From: Candidatus Nealsonbacteria bacterium | Lineage (GTDB): Bacteria; Patescibacteriota; Minisyncoccia; Minisyncoccales; JAUWAW01 | Assembly (NCBI GenBank): GCA_030601865.1 | Contig: JAUWAW010000001.1 | Span: 46,433 to 110,432, forward strand | Direction: 5' to 3' | DNA length: 64,000 nt | Shown here: positions 3,901-56,756 of the stretch, one piece after another | How the letters are laid out: each line of letters begins with the position of its first letter | Numbering within the stretch: the stretch's first letter is position 1 | The notes under the pieces: generated by a model | Databases searched by the model: none | Told to the model about the DNA's origin: nothing | The model's input: only the letters and a program-made list of their open reading frames with translations | Program-made: the position numbers and the translations under genes

Positions 3901-4149
3901 AGAGTAAGGGTGGGCGGCATTATTTCTGGCATTAAAAGGATTATCACTAAAAATGGCAAGCCAATGCTTTTTGTCAACTTGGAAGACCAGACCACTAAAG
4001 TTGAAGTCATTGCTTTTCCGGGGGTTCTGGAGAAAAACCCGAGTGTTTTCCAGGAAAATAAAATTGTTTTTGTTTCGGGCAGAGTAGACAGCCGAGACGG
4101 CGTGCCCAAAATAATTGCGGACGAAGTAGAAGAAATCGTGGAGAAATAA
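976..4149 (+). CDS. dnaE: DNA polymerase III alpha subunit
   Basis: 1064-aa ORF with the PHP-domain N-terminus (MKFTHLHVHSHYSLLDG), polymerase core, and an OB-fold at the C-terminus. The start is probably the internal ATG at 976 (MKFTHLH), not 955. Confidence 0.9.
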   Translation: MKFTHLHVHSHYSLLDGLPKIDQLLDYVKELGMDSVALTDHGVLYGAVEFYKKAKGKGIKPIIGCEVYVAYERMQQKRPNIDDKRYHLVLLAKNEQGYKNLVKLVTKAHLEGFYYKPRIDHQLLEKHASGLIGLSGCLQGRIPKLVIAGKTEEAEKLALYYQKIFGQDSFYLEIQDHPNLKEQQKVNNALIDFSKKLNIPLVATNDCHYLKSEDAEAQDILMLINTGSKQDDPERLTMKADDFSMRTPQQMSEFCAKQGAAEAVENTEKISQMCNFEFKLGETKLPFFETPNDKTPDEYLKELCYKGLGEKKKQIEKKKQAIERLEYELSVIKETGFAPYFLIVQDFVNWAKGERIVVGPGRGSDASSLVCYLLNITEVDPLKHGLLFERFLNKDRISMPDFDLDFTDRRRDEVIDYVAQKYGRDRVAQIITFGTMAARAVIRDVGRAMGVSYAFCDQTAKMIPFGSTLDECLEKVSEFRQLYDTDEQARKLIDSAKKLEGVARHASTHACGVVISKEPLTELVPLQHPTQNDENIVTQYEMHAIEDLGLLKIDLLGLKNLAIIEDTLAKIYVIHKKNIDISKIPFDDKKTFRIFQQAQTTGVFQCESSGFKRYLKQLKPTVFDDIVVMISLYRPGPIELIPEYIARKHKRKKIEYIHPSLKPVLEATYGLPVFQEQIMQIARTLAGFSLSEADVLRKAIGKKIKDLLEAQREKFIQGCIKKNISQGIAEKVFQWIEPHARYSFNKAHGTAYGMIAYQTAYLKAHYPLELMASVLTSEKTDVERVAFLIEECKDMGVEVLPPDINESYRHFSVVPEENKIRFGLLAIKNVGSNVVEAIVKERKERGIFKSVEDFISRISARDLNKRSLESLIKAGAFDKLAERKQLLFNLEKLLEWGRETQKTKTNGQKGLFDNTTYTATLVLEETAPASKKEKLEWEKELLGLFVTSHPLEEFKHIFAQKAISLQKISDGFINKRVRVGGIISGIKRIITKNGKPMLFVNLEDQTTKVEVIAFPGVLEKNPSVFQENKIVFVSGRVDSRDGVPKIIADEVEEIVEK

Positions 4150-4174
4150 CCCTACGAATTACGAATTTACAAAT

Positions 4175-5914
4175 ATGTCAAACAAAAAAATAGAAAAAAT
4201 TCGGCATTCGCTGGCGCATATTATGGCTGCAACGGTTAAGGAGCTTTATCCAAGAGTCAAATTCGGTATTGGCCCGGCCATTGAAAATGGTTTTTATTAT
4301 GATTTTGATTTAACCTCTCCTCTGTTCCCTGAAAATCTGCCAAAAATTGAAAAGAAAATACGGGAATTGATTAGAAAAGATTTAAAGTTTGAGAAAGAAA
4401 GTATTTCAAGAACAGAAGCCAAAAAAATATTTAAAAACCAACCATATAAATTCGAATTAATTAAAGAACTAAAAGGGCTACAAGTTTCATGTTTCAAGTT
4501 TCATGATTTCGTTGACTTGTGCAAGGGGCCTCATATTAAATCAACCAAAGAAATAAATCCCAAGGCGTTCAAATTAACTAAAATCGCCGGGGCTTACTGG
4601 CGGGGTGATGAGAAAAACCCCATGCTCACCCGCATTTATGGCGTGGCCTTTGAAACAGAAAAAGAATTAAAAGATTATTTAAAACAAGTTGAAGAAGCAG
4701 AACAAAGAGACCATCGTGTTTTGGGTGAAAAATTGGACTTATTTCATATTGATAAAGCCATCGGCCCAGGCCTTATCCTTTGGCATCCCAAAGGCGCACT
4801 CCTCAAAAAAATCATTGAGGATTATGTGCTTTCAGAATACCTAAAAGCCGGCTATCAACTGGTTAACACTCCCCATATTGCTAAAATTTCCATTTGGGAT
4901 ACCTCGGGCCACACCAAATTCTACAAAGACAGTATGTTCCCAGTCATGCAACTCAAGGAAATGGGCAAGGTAATCCCTTATCAGCTCAAACCAATGAATT
5001 GCCCTTTTCATATCTTGATTTATCAAAAAGAAATTAGAAGTTATCGCCAATTACCTATCCGATACACTGAATTAGGCACGGTTTATAGATACGAGAAATC
5101 AGGCACCTTGCACGGGCTGACGCGAGTGCGTGGTTTTACTCAAGATGATGCTCATATTTTCTGCACTCCTGAACAACTTGGTAAAGAGTTAGTGTCTGTT
5201 TTAAAACTAACTTTAAAAATATTTAAAACTTTTGGTTTTAAAGAATTTGAGATATGTCTTTCCACCCGGCCAAAAAAATATGTTGGCACTTTAAAAAGTT
5301 GGCAGAAAGCCACCAATGCTTTAAAATATGCCTTGGAAAAAGTAAAACTTGCCTATCAAATTGACCCTGGCGAGGGCGTTTTCTATGGACCCAAGATTGA
5401 CATTAAAATCAAAGATTCTTTGGGAAGGGCTTGGCAGTGTACCACCATCCAAGTTGATTTCAATTTACCTGAGGGATTTAATTTAAGCTATATTGATAAA
5501 AAAGGCAAAAAGAAACAGCCCATTATGATTCACCGAGCGCTTCTGGGTTCTTTGGAAAGATTTATTGGCGTTTTGATTGAGCATTATGCAGGCGCTTTCC
5601 CTTTGTGGCTGGCTCCAGAACAGACTTGGATTATTCCCGTAGGTACCCGTCACAAAAAATACGCCCGTGAAACATGCAAACAACTCTACGAGAACAGTTC
5701 TCGTAGTATTGTAAAAGACGCCAATGAAACCGTTTCCAAAAAAATAAGGGAAGGGGAAATCCAAAAAATTCCCTATCTCTTGGTTGTCGGCGACAAAGAA
5801 ATAAAAAGAAAATCAGTTAGGGTCCGCCAGCGAGGCAAGGGCGATATTGGAAAAATGAAACTGAATAAATTTATAGAAAAATGCCAGAATTGTCTTTGCA
5901 AACGCAAAAATTAA
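4175..5914 (+). CDS. thrS: Threonyl-tRNA synthetase (short form lacking N-terminal TGS/N1 domains)
   Basis: Starts in the N2/editing-type region (RHSLAHIMAA) and contains class II motifs including HRALLGSLERFIGVLIEHYAGAFPLWLAP, with the anticodon-binding domain at the C-terminus. Confidence 0.9.
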   Translation: MSNKKIEKIRHSLAHIMAATVKELYPRVKFGIGPAIENGFYYDFDLTSPLFPENLPKIEKKIRELIRKDLKFEKESISRTEAKKIFKNQPYKFELIKELKGLQVSCFKFHDFVDLCKGPHIKSTKEINPKAFKLTKIAGAYWRGDEKNPMLTRIYGVAFETEKELKDYLKQVEEAEQRDHRVLGEKLDLFHIDKAIGPGLILWHPKGALLKKIIEDYVLSEYLKAGYQLVNTPHIAKISIWDTSGHTKFYKDSMFPVMQLKEMGKVIPYQLKPMNCPFHILIYQKEIRSYRQLPIRYTELGTVYRYEKSGTLHGLTRVRGFTQDDAHIFCTPEQLGKELVSVLKLTLKIFKTFGFKEFEICLSTRPKKYVGTLKSWQKATNALKYALEKVKLAYQIDPGEGVFYGPKIDIKIKDSLGRAWQCTTIQVDFNLPEGFNLSYIDKKGKKKQPIMIHRALLGSLERFIGVLIEHYAGAFPLWLAPEQTWIIPVGTRHKKYARETCKQLYENSSRSIVKDANETVSKKIREGEIQKIPYLLVVGDKEIKRKSVRVRQRGKGDIGKMKLNKFIEKCQNCLCKRKN

Positions 5915-7460: not shown

Positions 7461-9419
7461 ATGAAATATCATATTGTTACTTACGGCTGTCAAATGAATA
7501 AAAGCGACAGTGAGAGGATTGCTACACTATTAGAGAATAAAGGATATCAGCCCGCGAAAGATATTTCTCGGGCTGATTTGGTAGTAATTAATATGTGTTC
7601 TGTTCGCCAAAAACCGGTAGACAAAGCCAAAAACCAGATTGCTCGTCTCCGCAATAAAAAAATTATTTTAATAGGTTGTATTTTAGATGCTGACAAAAAA
7701 GAATTTGCAAAAATGGGAGTTAAAATCTGGAGAGGTCTGACCTCTGCAAAACTTGCAGAGGTCAGACCTCTAACTGGTTTTGTGCCCATTATGAGAGGGT
7801 GTAATAATTTTTGTTCATACTGTGTTGTGCCTTACACTCGAGGGCCGGAAAAATATCGCAGTCAAAAAGAAATTATTGGCGAAGTTAAACATCTTCTTAA
7901 AAAAGGAATTAAAGAAATTACTTTGCTGGGTCAAAATGTCGATAGTTATAAATATAAACCACCACGGGATCCTTCGGCTTCGCCTCAGGATGATAACTCC
8001 GTTGTCAATTTTGTAAAATTACTTCAGAAAATTACTGTCTTGCCCGGCGATTTTAAGATTAAATTTATTACCAATCATCCCAAAGATTTTTCTGATGAAC
8101 TAATCGATGAGATTGCTCGGAATGACAAAATAATCAAATATGTTCACTTGCCAGTGCAGTCAGGTGATAATAAAATCTTAAAAAAGATGAACCGCAATTA
8201 TACTGGTGAGCAGTATTTGGCTTTGATTAAAAAAATTAAAAAGAAAATACCTAATGTTGACCTAACAACTGATATTATTGTTGGCTTTCCCGGTGAAACC
8301 GAAAAACAATTCCAAAAGACAGTTAACTTGTTTAAAAAGATTAAATTTGCTACCGCCTACATTGCCAAATACAGCCCCCGCCCCGGCACCGTTGCCTATA
8401 AACTAAAAGACAACGTCCCCCTCGCAGAAAAAAAGCGCCGAGAACAAACCCTGAGAAAATTAATACCTCCTACCCGTCATTCTGAGGCGAAGCCGAAGAA
8501 TCTCAACCAACGAGATCCTTCGGCTCGCTATCACTCGCCTCAGGATGACAATAACAAACTTATTGTTATTTTGGGGCCGACGGCTGTAGGGAAAACAGAG
8601 TTTTCAATAAAGCTGGCCAAAAAATTTAACGGCCAGGTGATTTCGGCTGACTCCCGTCAGGTCTATAAAGGAATGAACATCGGAACAGGTAAAATAAGCA
8701 AAAAAGAAAGGCAAGGTATCCCCCACTATCTTTTAGATATTGCCTCCCCCAGAAGAAGGTTTTCGGTTGCCCAATATCAAAAAAAGGCGATTGAAGTCAT
8801 AAACAAAATTTTAAAAAAGAAAAAAATCCCGTTTTTAGTAGGCGGAAGTCCTTTTTATATTTACTCTATTGTTGAGGGTTGGGTTTTTCCCAAAATGAAA
8901 GCCGACTTAAAACTGAGAAAAGAATTGGAAAAAAAATCAATTGAAGAACTTTTCAACATATTAAAAAAACTCTCTCCGCAGAGAGCCAAAACAATTGAAA
9001 AGAAAAACAAAAGACGGCTTATCAGGGCAATTGAGATTGCCAAGGCTTTAGGCAAAGTTTTGCCTCTGAAAAAAAATCCCCAATTTGATTGTTTGTTAAT
9101 AGGGATTAAACTAACAAAAGAAAAATTACAAAAAAAAGTTTCCCAAAGAGTTGATAAAATGATTGAATTAGGTCTTGAAAAAGAAGTAAAAAAATTATCT
9201 GAAAAATACGGCTTCAATTCTGTGTTGGGAGAAAGTATTGGCTACCAAGAATGGGAAAAAAGCGGCAGCCGGGCTGCCGCTGAAATAGCAGAGGAAATAA
9301 AATTTAATACTTATCATCTTGCCAAGCGGCAAATGACCTGGTTCAAAAAAGATAAAAGAATCCTTTGGGTTGAGAATTATAAACAAGCGGAAAATTTGAT
9401 CAAAAATTTCTTGGTATAA
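7461..9419 (+). CDS. miaB: Fusion protein: MiaB-like methylthiotransferase (MTTase N-domain + radical SAM, no TRAM) fused to MiaA tRNA dimethylallyltransferase
   Basis: N-terminus MKYHIVTYGCQMNKSDSE followed by the radical SAM motif GCNNFCSYCVVP. The C-terminal half has the MiaA P-loop LIVILGPTAVGKTEFSIKLA...ISADSRQVYKGMNIGT. The linker between the two halves is built from palindromic element sequence. Confidence 0.85.
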   Translation: MKYHIVTYGCQMNKSDSERIATLLENKGYQPAKDISRADLVVINMCSVRQKPVDKAKNQIARLRNKKIILIGCILDADKKEFAKMGVKIWRGLTSAKLAEVRPLTGFVPIMRGCNNFCSYCVVPYTRGPEKYRSQKEIIGEVKHLLKKGIKEITLLGQNVDSYKYKPPRDPSASPQDDNSVVNFVKLLQKITVLPGDFKIKFITNHPKDFSDELIDEIARNDKIIKYVHLPVQSGDNKILKKMNRNYTGEQYLALIKKIKKKIPNVDLTTDIIVGFPGETEKQFQKTVNLFKKIKFATAYIAKYSPRPGTVAYKLKDNVPLAEKKRREQTLRKLIPPTRHSEAKPKNLNQRDPSARYHSPQDDNNKLIVILGPTAVGKTEFSIKLAKKFNGQVISADSRQVYKGMNIGTGKISKKERQGIPHYLLDIASPRRRFSVAQYQKKAIEVINKILKKKKIPFLVGGSPFYIYSIVEGWVFPKMKADLKLRKELEKKSIEELFNILKKLSPQRAKTIEKKNKRRLIRAIEIAKALGKVLPLKKNPQFDCLLIGIKLTKEKLQKKVSQRVDKMIELGLEKEVKKLSEKYGFNSVLGESIGYQEWEKSGSRAAAEIAEEIKFNTYHLAKRQMTWFKKDKRILWVENYKQAENLIKNFLV

Positions 9420-10914: not shown

Positions 10915-11561
10915 GTTTCCTTTATTATTTCAACACCGGAGCTAGTCCCGATAATATCAGCGCCGGCTTTGACCATGGCTTTGAGGTCTTTTAAGCTTTT
11001 AATTTTTCCTGCTGCTTTGATTAAAAGCCCTGGCACTGCTTTTTTCATAATGGCTAAGTGTCTGGCTTTTTCTTTTAGTTCTCTGTGTTCTAAAGGGTCT
11101 TTAAAGGTGGCTGTTTTAACGCAAATAGCGCCTGCTTTTTTAACAATTTGTGAGGCCTTTTTTATTTCTTCTTCAGTTAAATAGCCCGAACCAATAATCA
11201 CTTTAGTGGACAGAATTTTACAAAGCCCTTTTAGATCTTTCAAAACTTTGTCGTATCTTTCGTACTTCAAGTCAACAATATTCATCACCACATCTAATTC
11301 ATCAGCCCCGTCATTCTTTGCTTTTTGGCACATTTTTACTCTCTTTTGATGCGCGCTTTGACCCATTGGCGGGTCAATTAAAACAACAATTTTAATATCG
11401 GTATCTTTCAACTCCTTCTTCACCAACCCCACCCTTTCTGGATTAATACAAACACTCCGAAAACCGTATTTTTTAGCTTCCTGGCAAGTTTTTTTTATTG
11501 CTTTAGCCGTCGCCAACCGTTTTATATTCGTATGGTCAATAAGTTTTGCTATGTTTCTCAT
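10911..11561 (-). CDS. deoC: Deoxyribose-phosphate aldolase
   Basis: DeoC-like TIM-barrel motifs (GFRSVCINP, LIKAAGKIKSL..AGADIIGTSSG), with the Schiff-base lysine region present. Confidence 0.75.
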   Translation of the reverse strand: MRNIAKLIDHTNIKRLATAKAIKKTCQEAKKYGFRSVCINPERVGLVKKELKDTDIKIVVLIDPPMGQSAHQKRVKMCQKAKNDGADELDVVMNIVDLKYERYDKVLKDLKGLCKILSTKVIIGSGYLTEEEIKKASQIVKKAGAICVKTATFKDPLEHRELKEKARHLAIMKKAVPGLLIKAAGKIKSLKDLKAMVKAGADIIGTSSGVEIIKET

Positions 11562-15950: not shown

Positions 15951-16090
15951 TGAAATAACCAATAACCAAGATACAATAACCAAACAAATCTCAATAACCA
16001 ATAATCAATAACCAATTATATAATGTTTGGTTATTGGTGTTTGAAGATTGGTTATTGTTTGGTTATTGTTTCTTGTATCTTGGTGATTGA
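15951..16090. repeat. About 140-bp imperfect palindromic element rich in AATAACCA / TGGTTATT (copy 1 of 2), filling the nusG-rplK spacer
   Basis: Left arm aataaccaagatacaataaccaaacaa pairs with right arm ttgtttggttattgtttcttgtatcttggtgatt. It is about 85% identical to the copy at 56757..56884. Confidence 0.7.
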
Positions 16091-16093
16091 ACA

Positions 16094-16639
16094 TTATATC
16101 TTCTTAATTTGCAGCGAATCCAACTCAACCGGGGTGTCTCGGCCAAACATATTGACTAATACTTTCACTTTGCCTTTCTCGGCGTCAATTTCTGAGACCT
16201 TGCCATCAAAGTCTTTAAAGGGACCGTCAGTAATCTTGACCGGGTCGCCAATTTCAAATTCAATTTTATACTGCGGTTCTTCCACACCCATTCTTTTTTT
16301 CAAAATGTCAATTTCTTCTTTTGACACGGGGACCGGGGTTGTACCAGCCCCCACGAATCCAGTTACATTGGGCGTATTTCTGACCACATACCAGGAATCA
16401 TCAGTGACAATCATTTCCACTAAGACATAACCAGGGTAAATCTTTTCCTCCACTACCTTTCTTTTACCATCTTTAATCTTAATCTTTTTTTCTTTGGGCA
16501 CTAAAACATTAAAAATTTTATCGTCCATATCCAAGGATTCAATCCTTTGTTTTAGATTTTTGGCCACTGCATCCTCATATCCAGAATAAGTGTGAATAAC
16601 ATACCAGTTTTTCTCTTGCGGTAGTCTTTGTTTAGGCAT
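16094..16639 (-). CDS. nusG: Transcription termination/antitermination factor NusG
   Basis: NGN domain (WYVIHTYSGYEDAV) plus a KOW domain (GDPVKITDGPFKDFDGKV). Confidence 0.9.
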   Translation of the reverse strand: MPKQRLPQEKNWYVIHTYSGYEDAVAKNLKQRIESLDMDDKIFNVLVPKEKKIKIKDGKRKVVEEKIYPGYVLVEMIVTDDSWYVVRNTPNVTGFVGAGTTPVPVSKEEIDILKKRMGVEEPQYKIEFEIGDPVKITDGPFKDFDGKVSEIDAEKGKVKVLVNMFGRDTPVELDSLQIKKI

Positions 16640-16650
16640 ATTTGAGCTCT

Positions 16651-16720
16651 AATTCAAGATTATATATTTATACATTAGCGAATCAAGGTTCTAGCGGAGC
16701 GTTAGCGAGGCAGGTTCTTA
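16651..16720. promoter_or_regulatory. Repeat family F copy 1 (AATTCAAGATTATATATTTATACATTAGCGAATCAAGGTTCT...GGTTCTTA), 12 nt upstream of the nusG start; candidate promoter module
   Basis: Four copies occur in the window. Read on the minus strand each gives TTGATT-N17-ATAATC-like -35/-10 boxes pointing into the downstream minus-strand gene. Confidence 0.45.
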
Positions 16721-16918
16721 TAATACAAACTTGTTCAGTAAAGTGCTAAATAAAAAGTCCACGCTCCCCAAAAAAATGGCCACAGCAATTGAGGCGCCAA
16801 TAACAATCAAAGTGTATCTCAAAGTCTCCTGACGAGTAGGCCAGTTAACTTTTTTAATCTCTAGTCGCACTTCTTTCAAAAAAGTGACAATTTTTTTAGG
16901 AAAGGCGCTAATAGCCAT
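16718..16918 (-). CDS. secE: Preprotein translocase subunit SecE
   Basis: 66-aa protein with a single C-terminal TM segment, in the conserved secE-nusG-rplK order. Confidence 0.75.
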   Translation of the reverse strand: MAISAFPKKIVTFLKEVRLEIKKVNWPTRQETLRYTLIVIGASIAVAIFLGSVDFLFSTLLNKFVL

Positions 16919-16922
16919 GTTC

Positions 16923-16993
16923 TTAATTCAAGATTATATATTTATATATTAGCGAATCAAGGTTCTGACGAGCGTTAGCGAGGCAGGTTCTTA
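16923..16993. promoter_or_regulatory. Repeat family F copy 2, 2-5 nt upstream of the secE start
   Basis: Same sequence family as 16651..16720. Confidence 0.45.
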
Positions 16994-19489: not shown

Positions 19490-21181
19490 TTATTTTCTCA
19501 CTTCCCACGATGGCTCCTTTTCCAAGGCTTTAACTATCTTGGCCATCAGTTTATCAATCTCCTCGGCAGTCAAAGTGTGGTCTTCTGCCTGGAAAATAAT
19601 ATGAAAGGCCAAATTTTTCTTTCCAGCTGGAATCTCTTCTCCTCCATACATATCAAAAAGGTCAACGTCTCGAATTAAAGGGCCGCCAGCCGCATTAATT
19701 TTATTTAAAACCTCTTCCACTAAAACTCCTTGGACAATTATAACCGCTAAATCTCGAACAGCAGCAGGGAATTTAGAAATTGGCTGATATTCATGTTCTT
19801 CTGAAGCCAACTTAATCAGTTTTTCAAAATCAAAATCAAAAGCAACTACCTCTTCAGAAGAAATCTTGCCCAGAAAACCAATCTCTTGATTATCTACCTT
19901 TATCTCAGCGCATTCTCCTTTCTGCCATATGTCAATCTTGCTCTGTTCCGGGGTCGGCTGATAACTATCATACCAGATATTACTTAGGCCAAGTTTTTTT
20001 AACATCAAATCAACCACTCCTTTAACTTGGTAAAAGATATCTATTGTCTTATTCTCGGCTGTCATCAATCCGGCAAGCATTTTTTTCTCCTGTCCGCCAA
20101 GAAATATCTTGCCCAATTCAAAGATTTTGATTTTTTTAAAATTATTTAAATTGTCTTTTACATTTTTGAGCAAATTAGGAATTAAGCTGGGCCGTAAATA
20201 TTTTTGTTTTCTGCTAATTGGGTTGGCTACTTCAATCTCTCCGCCTTGTTCAACAAAAGAATAGTTGTAAACTTCAGAAAAACCAAGTTCTTTCAGAATA
20301 TCTTTTATTCTGTCCTCCCAGAAGATATCAATGTTTCTTTGAGGCGGGATTAAAGAAGCTCTTGGAAAGACCGACTTAATCTTTCCGTAGCCATAAATCC
20401 TGCCAATCTCTTCAATTAAATCCTCCGGTAAAGAAACATCCAATCTCCTGGTTGGCACCTCTACCTGAAACATGAAACCCAAACTTCTTAAAATCTTGGA
20501 TATTTCTCTTTTGGGGATTTTAATTCCTAATAATCTTTCAACATAATCTAAATTTAATTGAATCTTTTTCACTAAAACTTTTTTAGGATAGAAATCTACC
20601 ATTCCCCTAAGCACTTTCCCTCCAGCTATCTCCTGAATCAAAGCGCAAACCCTTTCTTGAGCCAAGTCAATTAAATTTGGGTCTATACCATTTTCAAAAC
20701 GCCAGGAAGCATCTGTTTTTAATTTTAATTTTTGACAAGCGCGCCTTGTTAGCAAACGGTTAAAATTAGCTGCCTCAATAACTATATTTTTGGTTTTTTT
20801 ATCAACACCTGTTGTGTCCCCTCCTTTAATTCCGGCAATAGCAATCGGTTTGTTTGAATCAGCAATAACCAAAATATCTTTGTCTAATTTGTAGGTCTTA
20901 TCATCTAAGGTTTTAATTTTTTCTCCTTTTTTGGCTCTCCTGACAATGATTTTTTTACCCACTTTGTCCAAATCAAAAGCGTGAATGGGCTGGCCCATCT
21001 CCAGCATCACATAGTTGGCCGCATCAACAATATTGTTAATCGGCTGAAGGCCACAGGCCTTTAATCTCTGCTGAATCCATTTTGGCGAAGATTTTACTTT
21101 GACTCCAGTAATTACTTTGGCAGTATATCGCGGACAATCTTCTTGATTTTCAATTTGTAATTTAATAAAATCTTTTTTCAT
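19490..21181 (-). CDS. pheT: Phenylalanyl-tRNA synthetase beta subunit (main body: B3/4, B5, catalytic-like, anticodon-binding)
   Basis: EDCPRYTAKVITGVKVKSSPKWIQQRLKACG...HAFD aligns with E. coli PheT from residue 215 or so onward. Confidence 0.85.
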   Translation of the reverse strand: MKKDFIKLQIENQEDCPRYTAKVITGVKVKSSPKWIQQRLKACGLQPINNIVDAANYVMLEMGQPIHAFDLDKVGKKIIVRRAKKGEKIKTLDDKTYKLDKDILVIADSNKPIAIAGIKGGDTTGVDKKTKNIVIEAANFNRLLTRRACQKLKLKTDASWRFENGIDPNLIDLAQERVCALIQEIAGGKVLRGMVDFYPKKVLVKKIQLNLDYVERLLGIKIPKREISKILRSLGFMFQVEVPTRRLDVSLPEDLIEEIGRIYGYGKIKSVFPRASLIPPQRNIDIFWEDRIKDILKELGFSEVYNYSFVEQGGEIEVANPISRKQKYLRPSLIPNLLKNVKDNLNNFKKIKIFELGKIFLGGQEKKMLAGLMTAENKTIDIFYQVKGVVDLMLKKLGLSNIWYDSYQPTPEQSKIDIWQKGECAEIKVDNQEIGFLGKISSEEVVAFDFDFEKLIKLASEEHEYQPISKFPAAVRDLAVIIVQGVLVEEVLNKINAAGGPLIRDVDLFDMYGGEEIPAGKKNLAFHIIFQAEDHTLTAEEIDKLMAKIVKALEKEPSWEVRK

Positions 21182-21417
21182 TTTGCATTTTGTATTTTTA
21201 ATTTAGTTATAGCAGCTATCTCTCTGGCAATGCCCAGATGACAAAAACAATCATGCGCTCTATTGGGCAGAACATCAATATCCAAAATCCAATCTTTGCC
21301 TTTTTTCTCAACGCTCTCCACCTCAAAACTATGCATGGTCAAAAGCTGAGCCAAGTCCTTTGGTTTAGGCAGTTTCTTATTAAAAAAAGATTGTAGCCAA
21401 TTGTAAGAGAAAATCAT
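21178..21417 (-). CDS. pheT: PheT N-terminal fragment (79 aa), overlapping the main pheT ORF by ATGA in a different frame
   Basis: MIFSYNWLQSFF...LPNRAHDCFCHLGIAREIAAI matches the PheT N-terminus and B1 region. The OB-fold tRNA-binding domain is absent. Confidence 0.65.
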   Translation of the reverse strand: MIFSYNWLQSFFNKKLPKPKDLAQLLTMHSFEVESVEKKGKDWILDIDVLPNRAHDCFCHLGIAREIAAITKLKIQNAK

Positions 21418-21460
21418 AACCCTACGAATTACGAATTATTACGAATATACGAATAATTAA

Positions 21461-26770: not shown

Positions 26771-27403
26771 ATGGAACTCAAAAAACCTGACATCCGTTAT
26801 CTTAATAATATGAAAGAGGTACTTTGTGACCAGGAGTGGGCAAAAGATGCTCCTAATCTTGAGCTTTATTATATGTATCGCTACACAAAACGCGACGGCG
26901 CTTTGAGATATGACATTACTGAAATCCCATTTCAAATGTTAGGCAAAGAATATGTTAAAACAAAAGGCCACAGTCACGCAGGCGCCGAAACCTACGAGGT
27001 TTTACAAGGCAAAGCTATCTTCCTTCTCCAAAAATGTAACGAGAAAAAACCTGACGAGAAGACTTCTCGTCAGGTTGAGGATGTTTATGCGGTTGAGGTA
27101 AAAAGTGGTGATAAGGTATTTATTCCTGCTCATTACGGACATGTAACCATTAATCCCGGACCCGAAGACCTCAAAATGGCAAATTGGGTTTCCGACGCAT
27201 TCAAGTCAGATTATTCCCTTTATCTTGAAAAACAAGGCGCTTGCTATTACTGTATTAAAGGAAATCGGCCCCCATCACTCTGCAAGAGTGAGGGGGTAAA
27301 CTGGATTAAAAACGAAAATTATGGTAAAGTGCCAGAACTAAGATTTGAAAAGCCAAACAAAAATATTCCTGAAGATTTAAAGAAAGCTTTGATGGGAGAA
27401 TAA
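26771..27403 (+). CDS. Cupin-type (archaeal-type) glucose-6-phosphate isomerase-like protein
   Basis: The KTKGHSHAGAETYEVLQGKA motif resembles the metal-binding motif (TKGHYH..E.Y) of Pyrococcus-type cupin PGI. This is a recollection-level match. Confidence 0.5.
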   Translation: MELKKPDIRYLNNMKEVLCDQEWAKDAPNLELYYMYRYTKRDGALRYDITEIPFQMLGKEYVKTKGHSHAGAETYEVLQGKAIFLLQKCNEKKPDEKTSRQVEDVYAVEVKSGDKVFIPAHYGHVTINPGPEDLKMANWVSDAFKSDYSLYLEKQGACYYCIKGNRPPSLCKSEGVNWIKNENYGKVPELRFEKPNKNIPEDLKKALMGE

Positions 27404-30368: not shown

Positions 30369-30842
30369 ATGGCTGATTGGACTGATTTTATCAAAGAACA
30401 AGAAAAAGCAATACAAGAATTCGTTGGCGAAGAGAAAGTCATCGTGGCTCTCTCTGGGTGTATGGACAGCTCACTAACTACTATGTTAGTCCATCATGCT
30501 CTAAAGAAAGACCAAGTTTCGATGATCACCATCGACGACGGACTCAGAAGGAAAGGCGAACCTCAATGGGTAGTCAACACCTTTGCCAGCTTAGGCATTA
30601 AAGTAGGAACTCTAATAGTGAATCCTAAGTGGCTATTTTCTTCCTTGGGTCAAGCCAGGAATCCAGAAGTGAAAAGAGCAAGGTTTCGCTCTTTCTTTTA
30701 CAAAACCCTTGCTAGTCACGCTGAAAAAACAGGAGCTAAGGTTCTCTTTCAGGGAACCAATAGGGCCGATGTCCAGGAGACGGTTGGTGGTGTTAAACTC
30801 CAACATAAAAAAGTAAATCATTCCCAATCCTCCTTAGGGTAA
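30369..30842 (+). CDS. PP-loop ATP pyrophosphatase fragment resembling the GMP synthase ATP-PPase domain (truncated; possible gene remnant)
   Basis: VIVALSGCMDSS (the SGGxDS variant) and VLFQGTNRADVQETVGG resemble GuaA, but the ORF stops before the dimerisation domain. The probable start is at 30369, preceded by AAAGGAGAAGG. Confidence 0.45.
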   Translation: MADWTDFIKEQEKAIQEFVGEEKVIVALSGCMDSSLTTMLVHHALKKDQVSMITIDDGLRRKGEPQWVVNTFASLGIKVGTLIVNPKWLFSSLGQARNPEVKRARFRSFFYKTLASHAEKTGAKVLFQGTNRADVQETVGGVKLQHKKVNHSQSSLG

Positions 30843-30903
30843 TATGATAAATTTCTCCATTGACAAATTCGTATCTTCGTTGAGGCATAAAGTTAGTTAA
30901 CAG

Positions 30904-30950
30904 CGTTCCGATCCCTGTAAAATTTACGGGGATCGGAACGTTGTTTTTTT
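30904..30950 (+). terminator. Rho-independent terminator (12-bp GC-rich stem CGTTCCGATCCC / GGGATCGGAACG followed by TTGTTTTTTT)
   Basis: Perfect stem, 13-nt loop and a T-run. Confidence 0.7.
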
Positions 30951-33254: not shown

Positions 33255-34229
33255 ATGTCGTTTTCAATAGGCATTATTGGTCTGCCCAATGCGGGCAAGT
33301 CCACCCTATTTAAGGCCTTAACCAAAAAAGAGGTTGAAATCGCTCCCTATGCTTTTACCACTCGAGACCCCAATATTGGTATTGTTTCTGTTCCCGATAT
33401 AAGGTTAAAAAAAATTGCTGAAAAGATAAAGCCCCAAAAAATAACCCCCACTTTTATTAAATTTGTAGATATCGCTGGGTTGGTAAAAGGTGCCCATAAG
33501 GGAGAGGGTCTAGGCAACCAATTTTTGGCACATATTAGAAACTGCGATGCTGTGGTGGAGGTGGTGCGAGCTTTTGAAAACGCTGAAATAGAACATGTTG
33601 AGGGCTCTGTTGAGCCAAAAAGAGACATTGACATAATTAAAACAGAACTCTTGATGAAAGATTTGGAAATTTTGGAAAAATGCGGTCTTTTTCCAAAAAT
33701 TAAAGAGCAAGTATCTCAAGACAAACTAATTTCAGAAATGAATCTGTCGGAAGAAGAAAAACTTGCCATCAAAGAGTATCAATTTTTAACTGAAAAGCCC
33801 AGAGTTTTTGTTTTTAATGTATCGGGAGGCCATCCCGATAGGAGCGACGAAACGCTTTCTCTGGATCTCAAGTTAGAAGAAGAACTTTCTGAACTCTCAG
33901 AAGCAGAAGCAGAAGAATTAGGCATGGACTCCCAACTTGATAAATTAATCACCGCCTGCTACAATATCCTTGACCTGATTACTTTTTTTACTGTCACCGG
34001 GGGGAAAGAGACCAGGGCCTGGACTCTAAAAAAAGATTCAAAAGTGTTTGAAGCAGCTGGCTACGTCCATTCTGATTTTGCGGAAAAATTTATCAAAGCC
34101 GAAGTCATTCCCTGGCAACAATTAGTAGAAGCTCAATCCTGGACAGGGGCCCGTGAAAAAGGCTGGCTCAGAACAGAAGGAAAAGAGTATATAGTCAAGG
34201 ACGGAGATGTAATTGAATTCAAAATATAA
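33255..34229 (+). CDS. ychF: Ribosome-binding ATPase YchF (Obg-family) with C-terminal TGS domain
   Basis: GIIGLPNAGKSTLFKALT and FTTRDPNIGIV, followed by a TGS-like C-terminus. Confidence 0.9.
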   Translation: MSFSIGIIGLPNAGKSTLFKALTKKEVEIAPYAFTTRDPNIGIVSVPDIRLKKIAEKIKPQKITPTFIKFVDIAGLVKGAHKGEGLGNQFLAHIRNCDAVVEVVRAFENAEIEHVEGSVEPKRDIDIIKTELLMKDLEILEKCGLFPKIKEQVSQDKLISEMNLSEEEKLAIKEYQFLTEKPRVFVFNVSGGHPDRSDETLSLDLKLEEELSELSEAEAEELGMDSQLDKLITACYNILDLITFFTVTGGKETRAWTLKKDSKVFEAAGYVHSDFAEKFIKAEVIPWQQLVEAQSWTGAREKGWLRTEGKEYIVKDGDVIEFKI

Positions 34230-34316
34230 CCCTACGAATTACGAATTCATACGAATATACCAATAATTATCCCTTATTAAAAATTCGTATATTCGTAAGT
34301 ATTCGTAATTCGTAGG
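34230..34316. repeat. About 87-bp palindromic element built from TACGAAT heptamers (ACCCTACGAATTACGAATTCATACGAATATAC ... ATTCGTATATTCGTAAGTATTCGTAATTCGTAGG); repeat family G full copy
   Basis: Arms are reverse complements. Half-copies occur at 4149..4168 and 21418..21450, each abutting a start or stop codon. Confidence 0.65.
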
Positions 34317-36470: not shown

Positions 36471-38984
36471 TCATAATAGCACTTTAAAGGTCTCGGGGTC
36501 AAGCTCTACTCTATCTCCTTTTTTTAGCTCGCCTGATAAGATGGCTTTAGCTAAAACGTTTTCTACTTTATCTTGGATAACCCTTCTCATTTCTCTTGCT
36601 CCAAAAGTAGGAGAATAGCCAAGCTTCACTATTTTCTCTTTGAGGGCATCGGTAATAATAAAGTCAATGTCTTTTCCTTTGAGGTTTTTCTTTAAGTCCT
36701 GAAACATCAGCTGGGCAATATCTAAAAGGTTATCTTTAGTTAAGGGCCTAAAAACAACCACCGCATCAAACCGATTAATAAATTCCGGTCGGAAGATTTC
36801 CTTCTCAAAAAGTTCATCTAAAAGTTTCTGTTTAACTTGAGACCACTCGGTTTTCTCTCGGAGAGCTTTTAAGATAATTTTATAACCAGCATTAGAAGTA
36901 GCAATAATGATTGAGTTCTGAAAACTTACTTTTCTGCCCTGGCCATCGGTTAAATACCCTTCGTCTAAAACCTGTAAAAACAAATTTAAGATGTTGGGAT
37001 GGGCTTTTTCAATTTCATCCAACAGTATTAGGGAAAAGGGATTTTCCCTAACCGGGGTAGTCAAAAGCCCTTCTTGGCCCAATTCTCCAATCAAACGAGG
37101 TATATCTTTTATGGCTTGGAACTCTGACATATCCAGTCGAATCATCCGTTTCTCTGACCTAAAATAAATTTCAGCTAAAACCTTAGAGGTTTCAGTTTTG
37201 CCCACACCAGTGGGGCCTAAGAATAAAAAGCTACCCATGGGACCCTTTCTAATGGTAATCTTAGCCCTGGCTCTTCTCAACGCCTCAGAAATTTCTCTAA
37301 CCGCTTCATCCTGATTAATGATTCTTTTGTGAATTAATTCTTCTAAATTAAGCAAAAGTTTTTTCTCTTTACCCGCTAATTCTCCTACCGGCACCTCTAC
37401 TTTTTCAGCAATAACTTTGGCCACATGACTGGGCAAAACAACAGGGTCTTTGGTTGAGGTGGCCACAAATGCTGCCACCTCATCTAAAAGGTCTATTGCT
37501 TTTTTAGGAAAAGGAAGGTTGGGCAAGTACTGGGCAGCTAAAGAAATTATCTCGCGGAGGGCAGGCTGTGAAATTAATACTTTATGGGTTTTTTCAAGGC
37601 GGAGACATAAACTTTCTAAAAGTTGGAGGGTTTCTTCTTGAGGAATCTCGGAGACCTCTACTTTTTCAAAAAGATTCAAAATAGAAGGATTCTGCTCAAT
37701 TTTTTGGTGCAGACCAGTATAAGTAGTAATGGCCATGATTTGGAATTGAGGAAGATGTAAATAAGAACCTAAAATCCCAGAAATATCAACCACGCCTGGC
37801 CGAGCTTCCCCACCAACATAATTGTGGAATTCATCAATGACCAAAATAATGTTGCCGGCAGAAACCGTTTCCTGGAAAATCTTCTCTAAATTCTCTTCTA
37901 CTTGCTCTGGGTCTGGCAAACGGGCTAAAAAAGAAGGCATATCTAATTCTACTATCCTTTTATAATTTATCGGCTCTGAACTCTCACCCAAAAAACTCTT
38001 TAAAGCGAGGGCCTGAACAATACTTCTTCTGCCGGTGCCTGCTTCCCCCACCAATAAAACATTATTGATTTTTGTGCGAGACAAAATTGTCTCCACCATC
38101 TTTATTTCTTCTTGATGGCCAACAACCTCGGGCAATCTCTTTTTGACAACATCGGTTAAATCCAGGGAATATTTATCTAAGGTTAAGGTATAACCGGCGG
38201 CCCATTCTTTAGCCAAGGTTCCCATTCTGGCTAAATTTTTGGCAGACCAGAATTTTTTTCTTTCTTTTACCTTCCACTCCAGGTTCTCCAACCACCAAGC
38301 CAAATTTTCAATATCTTCTACCTTAAGATTATTTTCAATTAAAATCTTTTGGAAAATAGAATTGTGTTGAGCCAGAGCAACTATTAAATCGGTTATCTCC
38401 ACTCTCACTCCTCCTCTTTCTTGAGCTCTTTTTAAGGCCCCCAGAATTGTCTTCTGGAAACACTCCGAGAAAGTTGCTCTGTCGGGGATGTTAGCCCCGA
38501 CATTTTTTAAGTGTCCTTCTAATGTTTTTTTAATTTTTTCTAAACTTAAAAGGGCCCTTTGAAAGACAAAATTTAATTTTTGGTTATCTATTAAAAGAAA
38601 ATAGAAAAGAAAGTTGGAATTAGTTTCACACTTTTTTCTTCTGGCCCATTTTATTGATTTTTGAACCGCCTTGGCTGTTTCAAAATTTAAAAACTCTGCC
38701 AAATTCTCTTTGTTTTTAATGGCCGGCTTCTTCAGCTTAAACTTGAAAAACGCCTCAATAAGCACGATTAAACCAGCCAAACAAAAGACAAAAATAGATA
38801 CACCCAAAAAACTGCTAAAAGCGAAATTAAAAAAATTGCCCAGGATACACAAGGAAAGAAATATGACAAAAAATACACTCAAAATCTTGCGCAGTTTTCT
38901 AAGGGTGCCCAAACAGAGAATTCTTTGCCATCTTAACGCCTTATAAATACCTGTTTGTTTTAGATTAAAATTAAACCCAGGCAT
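36471..38984 (-). CDS. Clp/Hsp100-family double AAA+ ATPase (ClpB/ClpC-like) with N-terminal transmembrane segments
   Basis: Two Walker A boxes (LLVGEAGTGRRS and FLFLGPTGVGKTE). The N-terminal 90 aa or so are predicted TM helices. Confidence 0.8.
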   Translation of the reverse strand: MPGFNFNLKQTGIYKALRWQRILCLGTLRKLRKILSVFFVIFLSLCILGNFFNFAFSSFLGVSIFVFCLAGLIVLIEAFFKFKLKKPAIKNKENLAEFLNFETAKAVQKSIKWARRKKCETNSNFLFYFLLIDNQKLNFVFQRALLSLEKIKKTLEGHLKNVGANIPDRATFSECFQKTILGALKRAQERGGVRVEITDLIVALAQHNSIFQKILIENNLKVEDIENLAWWLENLEWKVKERKKFWSAKNLARMGTLAKEWAAGYTLTLDKYSLDLTDVVKKRLPEVVGHQEEIKMVETILSRTKINNVLLVGEAGTGRRSIVQALALKSFLGESSEPINYKRIVELDMPSFLARLPDPEQVEENLEKIFQETVSAGNIILVIDEFHNYVGGEARPGVVDISGILGSYLHLPQFQIMAITTYTGLHQKIEQNPSILNLFEKVEVSEIPQEETLQLLESLCLRLEKTHKVLISQPALREIISLAAQYLPNLPFPKKAIDLLDEVAAFVATSTKDPVVLPSHVAKVIAEKVEVPVGELAGKEKKLLLNLEELIHKRIINQDEAVREISEALRRARAKITIRKGPMGSFLFLGPTGVGKTETSKVLAEIYFRSEKRMIRLDMSEFQAIKDIPRLIGELGQEGLLTTPVRENPFSLILLDEIEKAHPNILNLFLQVLDEGYLTDGQGRKVSFQNSIIIATSNAGYKIILKALREKTEWSQVKQKLLDELFEKEIFRPEFINRFDAVVVFRPLTKDNLLDIAQLMFQDLKKNLKGKDIDFIITDALKEKIVKLGYSPTFGAREMRRVIQDKVENVLAKAILSGELKKGDRVELDPETFKVLL

Positions 38985-39328
38985 AAGCCAACTATTAATA
39001 AAGCTGGCAAGGCAAGCCAGCCAATTAAAATTACTATTCCTGCCAAAAAGAATAAAACTTCTATTAAAAGACCAATGACGATTAAAAAGCTTCTCATCAC
39101 CGCGCCGATAAGACGGGTAATCATATTAAAAGTGAAGGTCTCGAAATATCTCTTCAAATCTAATCCTCGGCCATAAGAGGAGCGGTATCTTCGCCAAGGA
39201 GAAAAAAGAGTTCTCAAAAGCAAGCCCATAGAAAAATATTTCAAATTAAAAGCAAGGAAATTCTTCCAAGCTTTTAAAATTGCCCTGGGCACATCAAAAA
39301 AATGCCATTCTAAATATTTAATCAACAT
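38960..39328 (-). CDS. Hypothetical membrane protein
   Basis: 122-aa hydrophobic ORF overlapping the clp start. Weak support. Confidence 0.3.
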   Translation of the reverse strand: MLIKYLEWHFFDVPRAILKAWKNFLAFNLKYFSMGLLLRTLFSPWRRYRSSYGRGLDLKRYFETFTFNMITRLIGAVMRSFLIVIGLLIEVLFFLAGIVILIGWLALPALLIVGLCLGLILI

Positions 39329-40485: not shown

Positions 40486-40488
40486 ATT

Positions 40489-41640: not shown

Positions 41641-42007
41641 GGTCCTTGATGGCTGATTTAAGGGCTGTTTCGGCTAATCGGATACAATGAAGTTTTGGTT
41701 TGGGAACTTCGCCCACTTGTTCAGCAATATCGTCAAAAGTAATCTTCTTTGCCTGTTTCAACGTCTTGCCTTCTGCCAAAGCGCAAATCATATCTGAAAT
41801 GGCTATGGCGTGTCCGCATCCGAGCGTTTCAAATTTTGCCTCTTTAATACGTTCTTTTCCATCCTTTTTTTCTACTTTGATATAAATTTTCATCACGTCG
41901 CCACACCTCAAATTTTGGGTATCCCCTACTCCATTTGCATCTTTAATCTTGCCCAAGTGTCTGGGGTGTAAAAAATGCTCCATTATTTTTTTTGAGTAAT
42001 AAACCAT
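41618..42007 (-). CDS. iscU: Fe-S cluster assembly scaffold (IscU/NifU-like)
   Basis: MEHFLHPRHLG...LRCGDVMKIYIKV...LGCGHAIAISDM. Confidence 0.8.
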   Translation of the reverse strand: MVYYSKKIMEHFLHPRHLGKIKDANGVGDTQNLRCGDVMKIYIKVEKKDGKERIKEAKFETLGCGHAIAISDMICALAEGKTLKQAKKITFDDIAEQVGEVPKPKLHCIRLAETALKSAIKDHESKKKK

Positions 42008-42011
42008 AAAA

Positions 42012-43142: not shown

Positions 43143-43234
43143 ATTATTTCTCTAATTTAACACATTTTCTTGTATTATATTACTTTAACAAAAAAGTTTG
43201 TTTTGGTCAATTTAGGCTTTTTGTTATACTAAAT

Positions 43235-46321: not shown

Positions 46322-46350
46322 TGTTTTTAGGTTTTTAAGTTTTTAGGTTT

Positions 46351-46950: not shown

Positions 46951-46997
46951 AATTCAAGATGATATATAATAACAAAATTCACCCGTTTTGTCAAACC

Positions 46998-47028: not shown

Positions 47029-48833
47029 TAACTTCTAAGGAGTTTCAGGTATATTTCCTCGGGAATAGGGGTGCGGCCGTGTTTTTGGAGAATTTTTTTG
47101 CCTTTGCGTTGTTTGACTAAGAGTTTCTTTTTGCGGGTAAAGTCGCCGCCGTACAGGGGCGCGGTCACATCCTTGCGCAGGGCGCGGATATCCTCACGCG
47201 CGATTATTTTGCCGCCAATTTGGGCTTGAAGCGATTGGGTAAAGTTTTTTGGAGGCAGGACATCCTTTAATCTTTTGAGAAACTGACGCGCCTGCTTGCG
47301 CGCCGCGTCTTTATAAACAATGCGCGAGAAACAGGGCTTCAGTTCGCGCGAAACCAAAAACTCAAGTTTAATAAGGTCGCTTTTTTTATACTCGTCAAAT
47401 TCGTAACTAAAGGAAGCGAACCCCTTGCTAATGCTTTTCAGTTTGTCTAAAAAATCCTCAATAATCTCAGCAAGCGGCGCATAAAACTCTAAAAGCAAGG
47501 TATCTTTATCTAAAACTTGCGAGGAAATAAACTTGCCTCGTTTCTGCTCAACTAATTCATGGATTTTGCTGTTGTGTCTGGTCGGGCTGACAATGTTTAA
47601 TTTAACCCAGGACTCCGCTATATAGTCAATCTCGCCCTGGTCCGGCAGTTCTGCGGCCGAATGGACTAAAATCGGCTCTTTTTGCTTTTTTGTCTTTACC
47701 TTGAAAACAACCGAAGGAGAAGTAAGAACCACTTGGGTGCCATACTCCCGCTTTAACCTTTCCATGGTGATTTCCAGATGAAGCATACCTAAAAAGCCGA
47801 TGCGCAGTCCCCTGCCTAAATAAGGATTGCTCATAGGTTTGGCTGTGAGAGAAGTGTCGTTGAGCCGCAGTTTGTCAAAATTGGCTTTCAGGGTTTCAAA
47901 GTTTTGGCCTTGCCCTTGCCCCTGCCCCGGAAAAACATTGGCAAAAACCAATGGCTTGGGCTCTTTATAGCCAGGCAGGCGAGGACAGTCCTCGCCTGAT
48001 TTGGTTGTTATTGTCTCGCCGATTCTGACGTCTGAAACGTTTTTTATGCCCGTGGCGATGTAGCCGATTTGGCCGGCTATTAGTTTTGGCACAGGACTAC
48101 GTTGCGGTATGAAAATGCCGACTTCTCTTGTTTCGGCGCGGACTTTTTGATTGACAAAATAAATTTGGTCGCCTTTTTTGATTTCGTTGCCAAACAGCCG
48201 CACATAGGCAATTACTCCCTGAAAATTGTCGTAAATTGAATCAAAAACCAGGGCTTTTAATACTCCTCCGCCCTCTGTTTTTGGCTGCGGCGCCTGCTTT
48301 ATCAACGCTTCAAGAACTTTCTCTATATTCTCGCCTGTTTTGGCGGAAATAGTTAAAATTTCCCCTGAATCAATACCTAAAAGATTGGCTAATTCCTGCT
48401 TAACTTTTTCTAATTGCTCCTCGCTCGGACAAACATCTATTTTATTGATAACCGGTATTATTTTCAAACTCTGCGCCTGCGCCAGGCGCAGATTAGCCAG
48501 GGTCTGTGCCTGAATGCCTGAAACCACGTCAACCAATAAAATAACACATTCAACAGCGGCCAAAGACCGTTCTACTTCATAGGAAAAATCCATATGGCCA
48601 GGCGTGTCAATCAAGTTTAATTGGTACTTGCGGCCGGCCAGACCATACTCCATTGCACAGGGCTGCATCTTGATAGTGATGCCGCGCTCTCTTTCCAAAT
48701 CCATCTGGTCCAAAACCTGTTCGCGCATCTGCTCTTTCTTCAAGGTGTTGGTAATTTCCAAAAACCGGTCAGCCAGAGTTGATTTGCCGTGGTTTATATG
48801 CGCGATTATAGAGAAATTTCGTATATTTCCCAT
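47028..48833 (-). CDS. lepA: Elongation factor 4 (LepA)
   Basis: G-domain IIAHINHGKSTLADR and DTPGHMDF, and the LepA C-terminal domain. Visibly GC-richer than its neighbours, and contains a GQGQGQ insert. Confidence 0.9.
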   Translation of the reverse strand: MGNIRNFSIIAHINHGKSTLADRFLEITNTLKKEQMREQVLDQMDLERERGITIKMQPCAMEYGLAGRKYQLNLIDTPGHMDFSYEVERSLAAVECVILLVDVVSGIQAQTLANLRLAQAQSLKIIPVINKIDVCPSEEQLEKVKQELANLLGIDSGEILTISAKTGENIEKVLEALIKQAPQPKTEGGGVLKALVFDSIYDNFQGVIAYVRLFGNEIKKGDQIYFVNQKVRAETREVGIFIPQRSPVPKLIAGQIGYIATGIKNVSDVRIGETITTKSGEDCPRLPGYKEPKPLVFANVFPGQGQGQGQNFETLKANFDKLRLNDTSLTAKPMSNPYLGRGLRIGFLGMLHLEITMERLKREYGTQVVLTSPSVVFKVKTKKQKEPILVHSAAELPDQGEIDYIAESWVKLNIVSPTRHNSKIHELVEQKRGKFISSQVLDKDTLLLEFYAPLAEIIEDFLDKLKSISKGFASFSYEFDEYKKSDLIKLEFLVSRELKPCFSRIVYKDAARKQARQFLKRLKDVLPPKNFTQSLQAQIGGKIIAREDIRALRKDVTAPLYGGDFTRKKKLLVKQRKGKKILQKHGRTPIPEEIYLKLLRS

Positions 48834-56754: not shown

Positions 56755-56756
56755 AA

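Follow-up and report, generated by a model that had tools for sequence, protein, structure and literature searches.

Repetitive extragenic palindromes (REPs), as short perfect palindromes with a cognate group-3 transposase (TnpA_REP), and the REPtrons formed by the two are established (PMC8266576). Intragenic REPs of the GTAG type have been documented in Opitutus terrae, and the Rickettsia palindromic elements (RPEs) RPE-4 and RPE-6 are CGTC-tagged and have no dedicated transposase (PMC3733652). We found no published REP, REP-associated tyrosine transposase (RAYT), REPIN or IS200-type hairpin system in Patescibacteria (Candidate Phyla Radiation, CPR) in the literature searched. Here we analyse a palindrome, Family D, which occurs in thrS, in mnmA and at the 3′ end of lepA in a 64,000-nt stretch of a Candidatus Nealsonbacteria genome (contig JAUWAW010000001.1), hereafter the window. 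In our view the palindrome is probably a copy of a hairpin repeat of the REP type that belongs to Patescibacteria (Paceibacteria / Minisyncoccales / Nealsonbacteria), with a cognate Y1 HUH transposase of ~235 aa, of the RAYT or TnpA_REP kind. The window's three copies are ordinary members of this repeat family.

Positions are window coordinates throughout, and the shuffled window served as the chance baseline for core matches. The copies, their relatives and the genes that carry them are:

4175-5914, plus strand: thrS, threonine--tRNA ligase (TIGR00418, 717 bits), host gene
5686-5706: Family D copy in thrS, perfect 21-nt palindrome CTACGAGAACAGTTCTCGTAG, in frame and read L-Y-E-N-S-S-R-S-I; the whole copy extends over 5682..5710 and its 19-mer TACGAGAACAGTTCTCGTA over 5687-5705
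40489-41640, minus strand: mnmA, tRNA 2-thiouridine synthase (NF001138, 401 bits), host gene
40873-40901: Family D copy in mnmA, perfect 29-nt palindrome AATACTACGAGAACAGTTCTCGTAGTATT, read Y-Y-E-N-C-S-R-S-I on the minus strand
46998-47028: lepA 3′ variant AAAACTATCGAGAACTGTTCTCGATAGTTTT, intergenic, 31 nt, overlapping the lepA stop codon (47028-47030) by 1 nt
47028-48833, minus strand: lepA open reading frame (ORF; TIGR01393)
27048..27076: related palindrome AACCTGACGAGAAGACTTCTCGTCAGGTT inside ORF 26771-27403, with core TGACGAGAA..TTCTCGTCA
47976..47998: related palindrome CAGGCGAGGACAGTCCTCGCCTG inside lepA, of the CGAGGAC type

All three palindromes that the original prediction placed in thrS, in mnmA and after lepA are present. 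Around the repeat, the thrS translation runs ...CKQ-L-Y-E-N-S-S-R-S-I-VKD... and that of mnmA, on the minus strand, ...ILE-Y-Y-E-N-C-S-R-S-I-GEH.... These two copies share 25 identical consecutive bases, synonymous positions included. The lepA variant, predicted to be related, does have the same 15-nt core, but with one extra T.A pair per arm it is a diverged subfamily whose sequence differs from that of the thrS and mnmA copies. Exact matches to the 15-nt core (CGAGAACNGTTCTCG) number 3 in the window, and 2 further matches have two mismatches (27055, 47980); shuffles gave a mean of 0.03 matches, and none of 100 reached 5. The two-mismatch sites belong to the related palindromes listed above. 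The core of the 27048-27076 palindrome resembles repeats flanking transposase genes in two other loci (L065 and L066), and the 47976-47998 palindrome is a sister lineage within the same repeat superfamily. Perfect palindromes as such (arm ≥9, loop ≤6) are abundant in the window, 24 compared with ~2 in shuffles, and many are inside ORFs; those at 27048-27076, 47976-47998 and 7731-7771 match sister-lineage cores. As single-stranded DNA the three Family D copies fold at -9.8, -11.1 and -12.5 kcal/mol (z-scores -5.6 to -7.3), and their lengths of 21, 29 and 31 nt fall within the size and stem-loop range of REPs (20-50 nt palindrome). An Rfam scan of the window returned two tRNAs only, so that the hairpins are covered by no known RNA family. 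A Logan contig of run SRR14872663 (L132), which may share the assembly's reads, is 100% identical to window positions 38655-51098 over 12,444 bp and spans the mnmA and lepA copies.

The repeat is a dispersed family that is almost entirely confined to one part of the bacterial tree. An exact scan for the 19-mer TACGAGAACNGTTCTCGTA across 185,579 species genomes, one per bacterial or archaeal species, identified 63 sites in 50 loci, with ~9 expected by chance (596e9 / 4^18). For all but two of the matches, the contig label is Patescibacteria or one of its lineages; the labels include Nealsonbacteria, Portnoybacteria, Minisyncoccales, Parcubacteria and several auto-labelled 'Saccharibacteria' bins. 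Genomes contain up to 10 copies, a lower bound, as the exact search biases the sample to intact copies and leaves degenerate ones uncounted. In the 64 kb of the window there are 3 copies with the exact core and 2 related ones, and the reference genomes have 5-10 exact 19-mers. Three other origins were considered and rejected: phage, as TACGAGAACNGTTCTCGTA has a single match in 2.9 M viral contigs; CRISPR-like or TIGR-like arrays, as the copies are dispersed and not arrayed with spacers; and a LexA (Cheo) box, as the gap between GAAC and GTTC is 1 nt here rather than 4 and ORFs contain copies.

Different copies have unrelated flanks, and the repeat unit is therefore the hairpin only. Its conserved core, CGAGAAC-N-GTTCTCG, is usually extended to CTAC...GTAG, beyond which 4-5 outer base pairs are complementary but genome-specific in sequence, and the element is two-fold symmetric apart from its centre base. 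Outer arms are AAACA..TGTTT in all five copies of JACPGX, and most commonly AACAC..GTGTT in JBARPC; JAGMDC shares AATAC..GTATT with the window. Genomes likewise differ in the centre base, which is W (A/T) in some and S (G/C) in others and, as with the outer arms, uniform within a genome. This uniformity points to copying or homogenisation of the repeat within each genome.

The family is tied to a transposase gene. In five genomes (L003, L037, L046, L007 and L016), an ORF of 232-241 aa (~235 aa) has the repeat on both sides and also inside, at ~aa 55-63, so that three copies ~200 and ~540 bp apart bracket and interrupt it; these are exactly the genomes with ≥5 repeat copies. A single flanked transposase gene was observed in four of the genomes, and JAGMDC has a second, partial paralog (L041, 60% identity). 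The protein matches Pfam Y1_Tnp (PF01797) at 36-47 bits, compared with a gathering score of 23. Its best NCBIfam model is NF047646, REP-associated tyrosine transposase (REP_Tyr_transpos; 50.7-53.3 bits, E 1e-13 to 1e-14), and the NCBIfam IS200 model scores 17 bits. Residues H85 and H87 (NHVHLL) and Y145 (YIHTNP) are invariant across 54 sequences. The protein family comprises at least 2,643 members, named only 'transposase' or 'hypothetical protein' in their sources.

Repeat and transposase vary together. A metagenome scan with the alignment of this protein added 80 loci, for 85 homologous loci in all. At 54 of the 85, the same core (≤2 mismatches) is found upstream of the transposase ORF, inside it (nt 120-260) and downstream, and at 10 more it is found upstream and downstream only. 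The core itself differs by transposase lineage (for example CGAGAACNGTTCTCG, ACGAGGAAAGNCCTCGT, CGGGAACAGTTCCCG, AGAGGTCCGACCTCT, GGGTCTCCGAGACCC and TGTGAGCTCGGGGCTCACA); all four Watson-Crick pair types occur at stem positions, and a CGAG...CTCG centre is widely kept. The internal copy reads xENxSRx in some transposases and xRTVLx in others, and since either reading frame is used, what is conserved is a nucleic-acid hairpin and not a peptide. We read this architecture as a REPtron, a REP with its cognate RAYT or TnpA_REP. One RAYT-like trace is present in the window, a 27-codon N-terminal relic MPQRRYEFVNGEIYHITLRRIGNDLLF at 30808-30888 (minus strand), which is preceded by a hairpin of its own at 30899-30944; it was rejected as the Family D enzyme because its best matches, L129 and L128 (67-74%), carry ACAGGTCTGACCTGT-type repeats.

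How the hairpin sits in its two host proteins was assessed with 119 ThrRS and 119 MnmA homologs (238 in total). The closest are from Patescibacteria (CPR), for example 'Candidatus Paceibacterales' and 'Patescibacteria group bacterium', and the nearest relatives have amino-acid identities of 75% (ThrRS) and 62% (MnmA). In ThrRS the repeat occupies a helix-to-strand loop of the anticodon-binding domain, where L-YE-NS-SRS-IVKD aligns column for column with the L-xx-xG-(F/L)R-x-x-(V/I)KD of ~100 orthologs; the loop has zero extra residues, and the repeat-coded Arg sits on a conserved Arg. Real insertions in this loop occur in P0019, P0043, P0060 and P0066, and none in the ThrRS of the window. The right outer arm of the thrS copy (GTATT) is intact, and the left is AACTC where AATAC is expected, because the codon CTC encodes a conserved Leu; protein-level selection has thus trimmed the repeat on that side. 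The MnmA copy occupies a variable-length loop just ahead of the conserved IGxHxGL, and this loop exists in short and long classes; that of the window has 3 residues more than the short class and 1 fewer than the long class of the nearest homologs.

With no gain of length in thrS and no clean gain in mnmA, patch replacement seems a better description of the event than simple insertion: an existing loop was overwritten by the element, or the element was compensated inside that loop. Both copies are lineage-specific acquisitions that did not lengthen the loop. The insertion proposed in the original prediction, as worded, does not survive these alignments. Its mobile hairpin fares better, in that a multi-copy family tied to a Y1 transposase gene is what we find, and the mobility itself we infer. 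A spreading DNA hairpin thus seems to have put the same peptide into ThrRS and MnmA, with simple insertion a wrong or incomplete description of how it did so.

Two further observations concern these loops. The nearest thrS locus, L131, has no repeat copy in 15 kb, and in the same loop of this closest ortholog (~11490-11555) there is a tandem (AACTTAC)x4 encoding LQLTTYNLRT, which suggests that the thrS loop is a hot spot for replication-slippage-type events. In addition, loops of the Patescibacteria ThrRS or MnmA homologs P0019, P0145, P0147 and P0161 contain inserts such as GPAFGGRVAGG or GPAFAKASAG(N/K)P; they read like translated GC-rich palindromes, a hint that inserts encoded by hairpins are widespread among the proteins of CPR bacteria.

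Residence in genes is common for this family, whose hosts include many unrelated ORFs. Among 74 distinct core copies, 35 (~47%) are inside ORFs of ≥90 aa and ~30 (~40%) inside ORFs of ≥150 aa. In the latter, ~19 copies are read as YENxSR, ~10 as TRTVLV and 1 in the third frame, which normally holds TAG; the lone copy there comes from a genome in which the repeat ends in GTAT and the stop is absent. The effect on protein length varies among the ortholog pairs available, which were retrieved by chance. Net insertions are seen in a PheT-like gene (+8 aa, L027 compared with the window pheT), in L026/L028 compared with L040 (+6 aa), and in L013/L019 compared with L015; equal-length replacements are seen in L008 compared with L050 and at a second site of L040. 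The PheT-like gene of L006 has a decayed copy, SEDSSRW. Several orthologous sites are occupied in two or three genomes at once, in genes that are only 55-63% identical, namely pth (L020/L030/L035) and a gene for a 524-aa membrane protein (L010/L039/L047). For a different palindrome, CCCCCACCAAAA/TTTTGGTGGGGG, loci L093 and L097-L102 (93-94% identical) differ by a 12-nt indel, TTTTGGTGGGGG, that equals its second arm and looks like a hairpin arm gained or lost; a similar palindrome is found in the window yraN, at 54282-54316.

By analogy with E. coli TnpA_REP and IS200/IS605 TnpA (PMC8266576), the transposase would bind the hairpin extruded on single-stranded DNA and cleave beside it, and strand transfer would seed new copies. 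As intergenic spacers in these genomes are very short (median 77 nt around copies), many copies land in genes. There they would survive only in the two stop-free frames, as a polar turn (Y-E-N-x-S-R-S) or a strand-like segment (T-R-T-V-L-V), and only at tolerant positions where the encoded residues suit the host protein. In thrS the fit would be provided by the repeat-coded Arg falling on the conserved loop Arg, with selection for the conserved Leu eroding the left outer arm, and in mnmA by the repeat-coded Ile falling on a conserved hydrophobic residue before GxH. Length-neutral copies could arise by insertion with a compensating deletion, by replacement between two cleavage sites, or by a template-switch or gene-conversion step.

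The last of these routes is also the basis of the alternative that survives best, in which the palindromes were perfected in place by template switching (snap-back or quasi-palindrome correction) and homogenised by gene conversion, the transposase being a bystander or mere host. Length neutrality of the thrS copy and of two other sites, and near-neutrality of the mnmA copy (-1 relative to the nearest homologs), would be expected from such a process; the indel that separates L093 from L097-L102 is exactly a palindrome second arm, the two arms of the lepA variant are changed symmetrically, and the thrS loop of the nearest relative holds a slippage product, (AACTTAC)x4. Together, the 12-nt arm polymorphism and the slippage product show that these genomes do undergo replication errors of this sort. 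At any single locus, however, template switching cannot make the same 25-29 nt as at an unlinked one, and it leaves unexplained both the co-variation of core and transposase lineage and the flanked transposase in 5/5 high-copy genomes. We regard it as unlikely to replace the transposase-linked repeat as an explanation, and note that template switching may be the step that installs copies.

A duplex operator, or a structural site bound by some protein of the cell (regulator, nucleoid protein, or restriction-modification or uptake motif), selected and not mobile, would account for a perfect two-fold symmetric 19-mer that is conserved across genera, for its retention at orthologous sites in the 55-63% identical pth and 524-aa genes, and for the many copies that adjoin gene starts or ends. 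We give this little credence: the outer arms are complementary yet differ between genomes, as expected for a hairpin and not for a fixed duplex, about half of the copies are deep inside ORFs, and the repeat is specifically tied to the gene for a single-stranded DNA HUH enzyme, with no associated regulator gene.

The intergenic copies raise the question of transcription termination. Of the 35 that could be classified, 26 are between unidirectional, 6 between convergent and 3 between divergent genes. The lepA copy fills a spacer of 77 nt and has A4 and T5 runs on its two sides (AAAAC...GTTTTT). Its 14-bp stem starts 1 nt into the lepA stop, and a strong promoter-like site (46994-46966, minus strand) that would serve the sortase gene comes after the copy. 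A consensus terminator scan did not call this copy, because the T-run is partly within the stem; it may nevertheless double as a terminator-like hairpin. It could be argued from such cases that every copy is an intrinsic terminator or an mRNA-stabilising hairpin whose stem is typical of the lineage, and that the intragenic ones are accidents. An A-run, hairpin and T-run succession at several intergenic copies (L001, L021 and the lepA copy), the location of 32/35 classified intergenic copies between unidirectional or convergent genes, and the promoter-like site after lepA are in keeping with this. Against it, the scan missed the lepA copy, the thrS and mnmA copies have no T-runs and are inside essential genes, and neither the sequence identity between loci nor the copies upstream of and inside the transposase ORF are explained. 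This view has very little to recommend it, and a terminator function is at most a secondary role of some copies.

Independent evolution of a functional YENxSRS motif in ThrRS and MnmA, or a chance match, has nothing beyond the shared peptide in its favour and can be dismissed, given 25 identical consecutive nt including synonymous positions, 0.03 matches expected, the absence of YENxSR, TRTVLV or related repeat-coded peptides anywhere in the 238 homologs (0/238), and the same DNA being non-coding or in another frame elsewhere. That absence excludes convergent protein evolution, and the segment is not a conserved protein motif in other lineages (119 ThrRS and 119 MnmA orthologs) but a DNA-level repeat; a conserved motif there would have refuted the original prediction, which had argued against convergence.

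Several results weigh against a REP with a cognate RAYT, the reading that we prefer. On the protein side, the NF047646 score of 51-53 bits is under the curated cut-off of 80; a profile search of PDB sequences gave only weak matches to ISDra2 TnpA (E 0.05-0.4), with E. coli TnpA_REP unmatched among solved structures at E ≤ 10; and an AlphaFold2 model of the transposase, built from a 54-sequence alignment, was unusable (mean predicted local distance difference test score, pLDDT, 46; predicted template modelling score, pTM, 0.35). The 64-kb window contains no cognate transposase gene. On the repeat side, exact copies number a modest 5-10 per genome, far below the hundreds of REP copies per genome in E. 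coli or Pseudomonas. The GTAG forms the 3′ end of the stem, where it pairs with CTAC and is thus not a free 5′ guide; in some genomes GTAT (JACPGX) or GTAA (PFOG) takes its place, and no separate conserved 5′ motif outside the stem was found among the copies compared. REPs are mainly extragenic, whereas nearly half of the copies here, and 2/3 in the window, are intragenic. Among near-identical fetched loci no filled- versus empty-site polymorphism was found for this family. Finally, no length is added by the copies in thrS, L008 and L040, and for mnmA the loop length can be read either way. Y1 transposases act by a known cut-and-paste chemistry that adds DNA, and length-neutral copies are not what it predicts.

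A bolder form of the proposal is that Patescibacteria have a distinct REP/RAYT type, in which the target hairpin is always inside the transposase coding sequence, in either frame, and which spreads by length-neutral patch replacement into essential genes. We offer this tentatively, and think it rather doubtful as a whole. If it were true, the internal hairpin could serve self-regulation or be part of the mobile or processing unit, and patch replacement would let the hairpin colonise thrS and mnmA with no change in protein length.

Other repeats and irregularities are present in the window. Within mnmA, at 41164-41235, a 72-nt composite palindrome consists of the 36-nt TGTGTCAAAATCCTGCGA/TCGCAGGATTTTGACACA split centrally by a nested second palindrome; the 36-nt palindrome is intact at intergenic positions 51610-51645 and 56120-56155, and relative to MnmA orthologs the composite is a real in-frame insertion of ~21-24 aa (CVKILRPACIAMRSITGRSQNSDT). 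At 7731-7771, in a MiaB-MiaA fusion ORF (7461-9419), a dimer of AGAGGTCTGACCTCT forms an in-frame 41-nt palindrome, around which the NCBIfam MiaB match breaks into two stretches; the unit matches repeats flanking other transposase lineages (L107, L113). The pheT gene (19490-21417, minus strand) is present as two ORFs, 21178-21417 and 19490-21181, with an ATGA overlap within an A-rich run, which could reflect a frameshift, a sequencing error or a genuine split. TACGAAT heptamer repeats (ATAACCCTACGAATTACGAATT...) are found directly upstream of the thrS start (4141-4170), upstream of the pheT start in the opposite orientation (21418-21459), and as a third, intergenic copy (34221-34269); such repeats may regulate aminoacyl-tRNA synthetase genes or act as a promoter element for them. 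A 63-nt intergenic repeat (TTAATTCAAGA.TATAT..TTATACATTAGCGAATCAAGGTTCT...) is present four times and a low-complexity AACCAATAACC repeat of ~130 nt twice, their sites together being:

16649-16985 and 62700-62825; 15953-16109 and 56753-56882: 63-nt and AACCAATAACC repeats

How REPs spread is unsettled even in E. coli, and this lineage offers natural experiments in which insertion, patch replacement or template switching could be told apart. Part of the oddity of CPR proteins, their short unalignable loop segments and small insertions, would be written by selfish hairpin DNA and not by protein-level adaptation, which matters for the annotation, alignment and phylogeny of CPR genomes. A family of at least 2,643 proteins also gains a concrete, testable substrate.

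Compared with described systems, the Patescibacteria element is most like the group-3 REPtrons of Stenotrophomonas maltophilia and Marinomonas (PMC8266576, PMC2817692, PMC3733652). Both have a short, perfect, multi-copy palindromic hairpin with GTAG / CTAC at the stem foot and a Y1 HUH gene bracketed by cognate repeats; in both, repeat and transposase lineage co-evolve and intergenic copies are mostly between unidirectional or convergent genes. In contrast to those REPtrons, the Patescibacteria element is two-fold symmetric, REP and inverted REP (iREP) being the same apart from the centre base; its GTAG is paired in the stem, ~47% of copies are intragenic, and coding copies in some cases leave protein length unchanged; the transposase ORF has a conserved third copy within it; and the transposase itself, at ~235 aa, is longer, has a C-terminal YRWSSY region and does not reach the curated RAYT score. 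The Patescibacteria REP system as such, its two-fold symmetry, its near-50% intragenic fraction, the internal third copy and the length-neutral coding copies appear to be undescribed.

As with Rickettsia RPEs and the GTAG REPs of Opitutus terrae, palindromes lie in frame in probably functional genes of small or compact genomes, where surface loops tolerate them. RPE-1-type elements are ~100-150 bp and add tens of residues. The Family D unit differs from the RPEs in its size of 21-31 nt (7-9 codons), its CTAC/GTAG ends, its link to a transposase and its length neutrality at some sites; the two have only the in-frame intragenic habit in common, and Family D is not an RPE. With the IS200/IS605 family (IS608, ISDra2), the transposase shares the enzyme fold family, the HUH motif (HVH) and a Tyr in a YxHxNP helix, and it has a weak direct sequence match to ISDra2 TnpA. 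IS200/IS605 TnpA recognises its hairpin on single-stranded DNA, and by analogy the Patescibacteria enzyme may do the same. Unlike the ends of a multi-copy insertion sequence, however, the Patescibacteria hairpins are dispersed alone, and those that flank the transposase gene are identical rather than distinct left and right ends.

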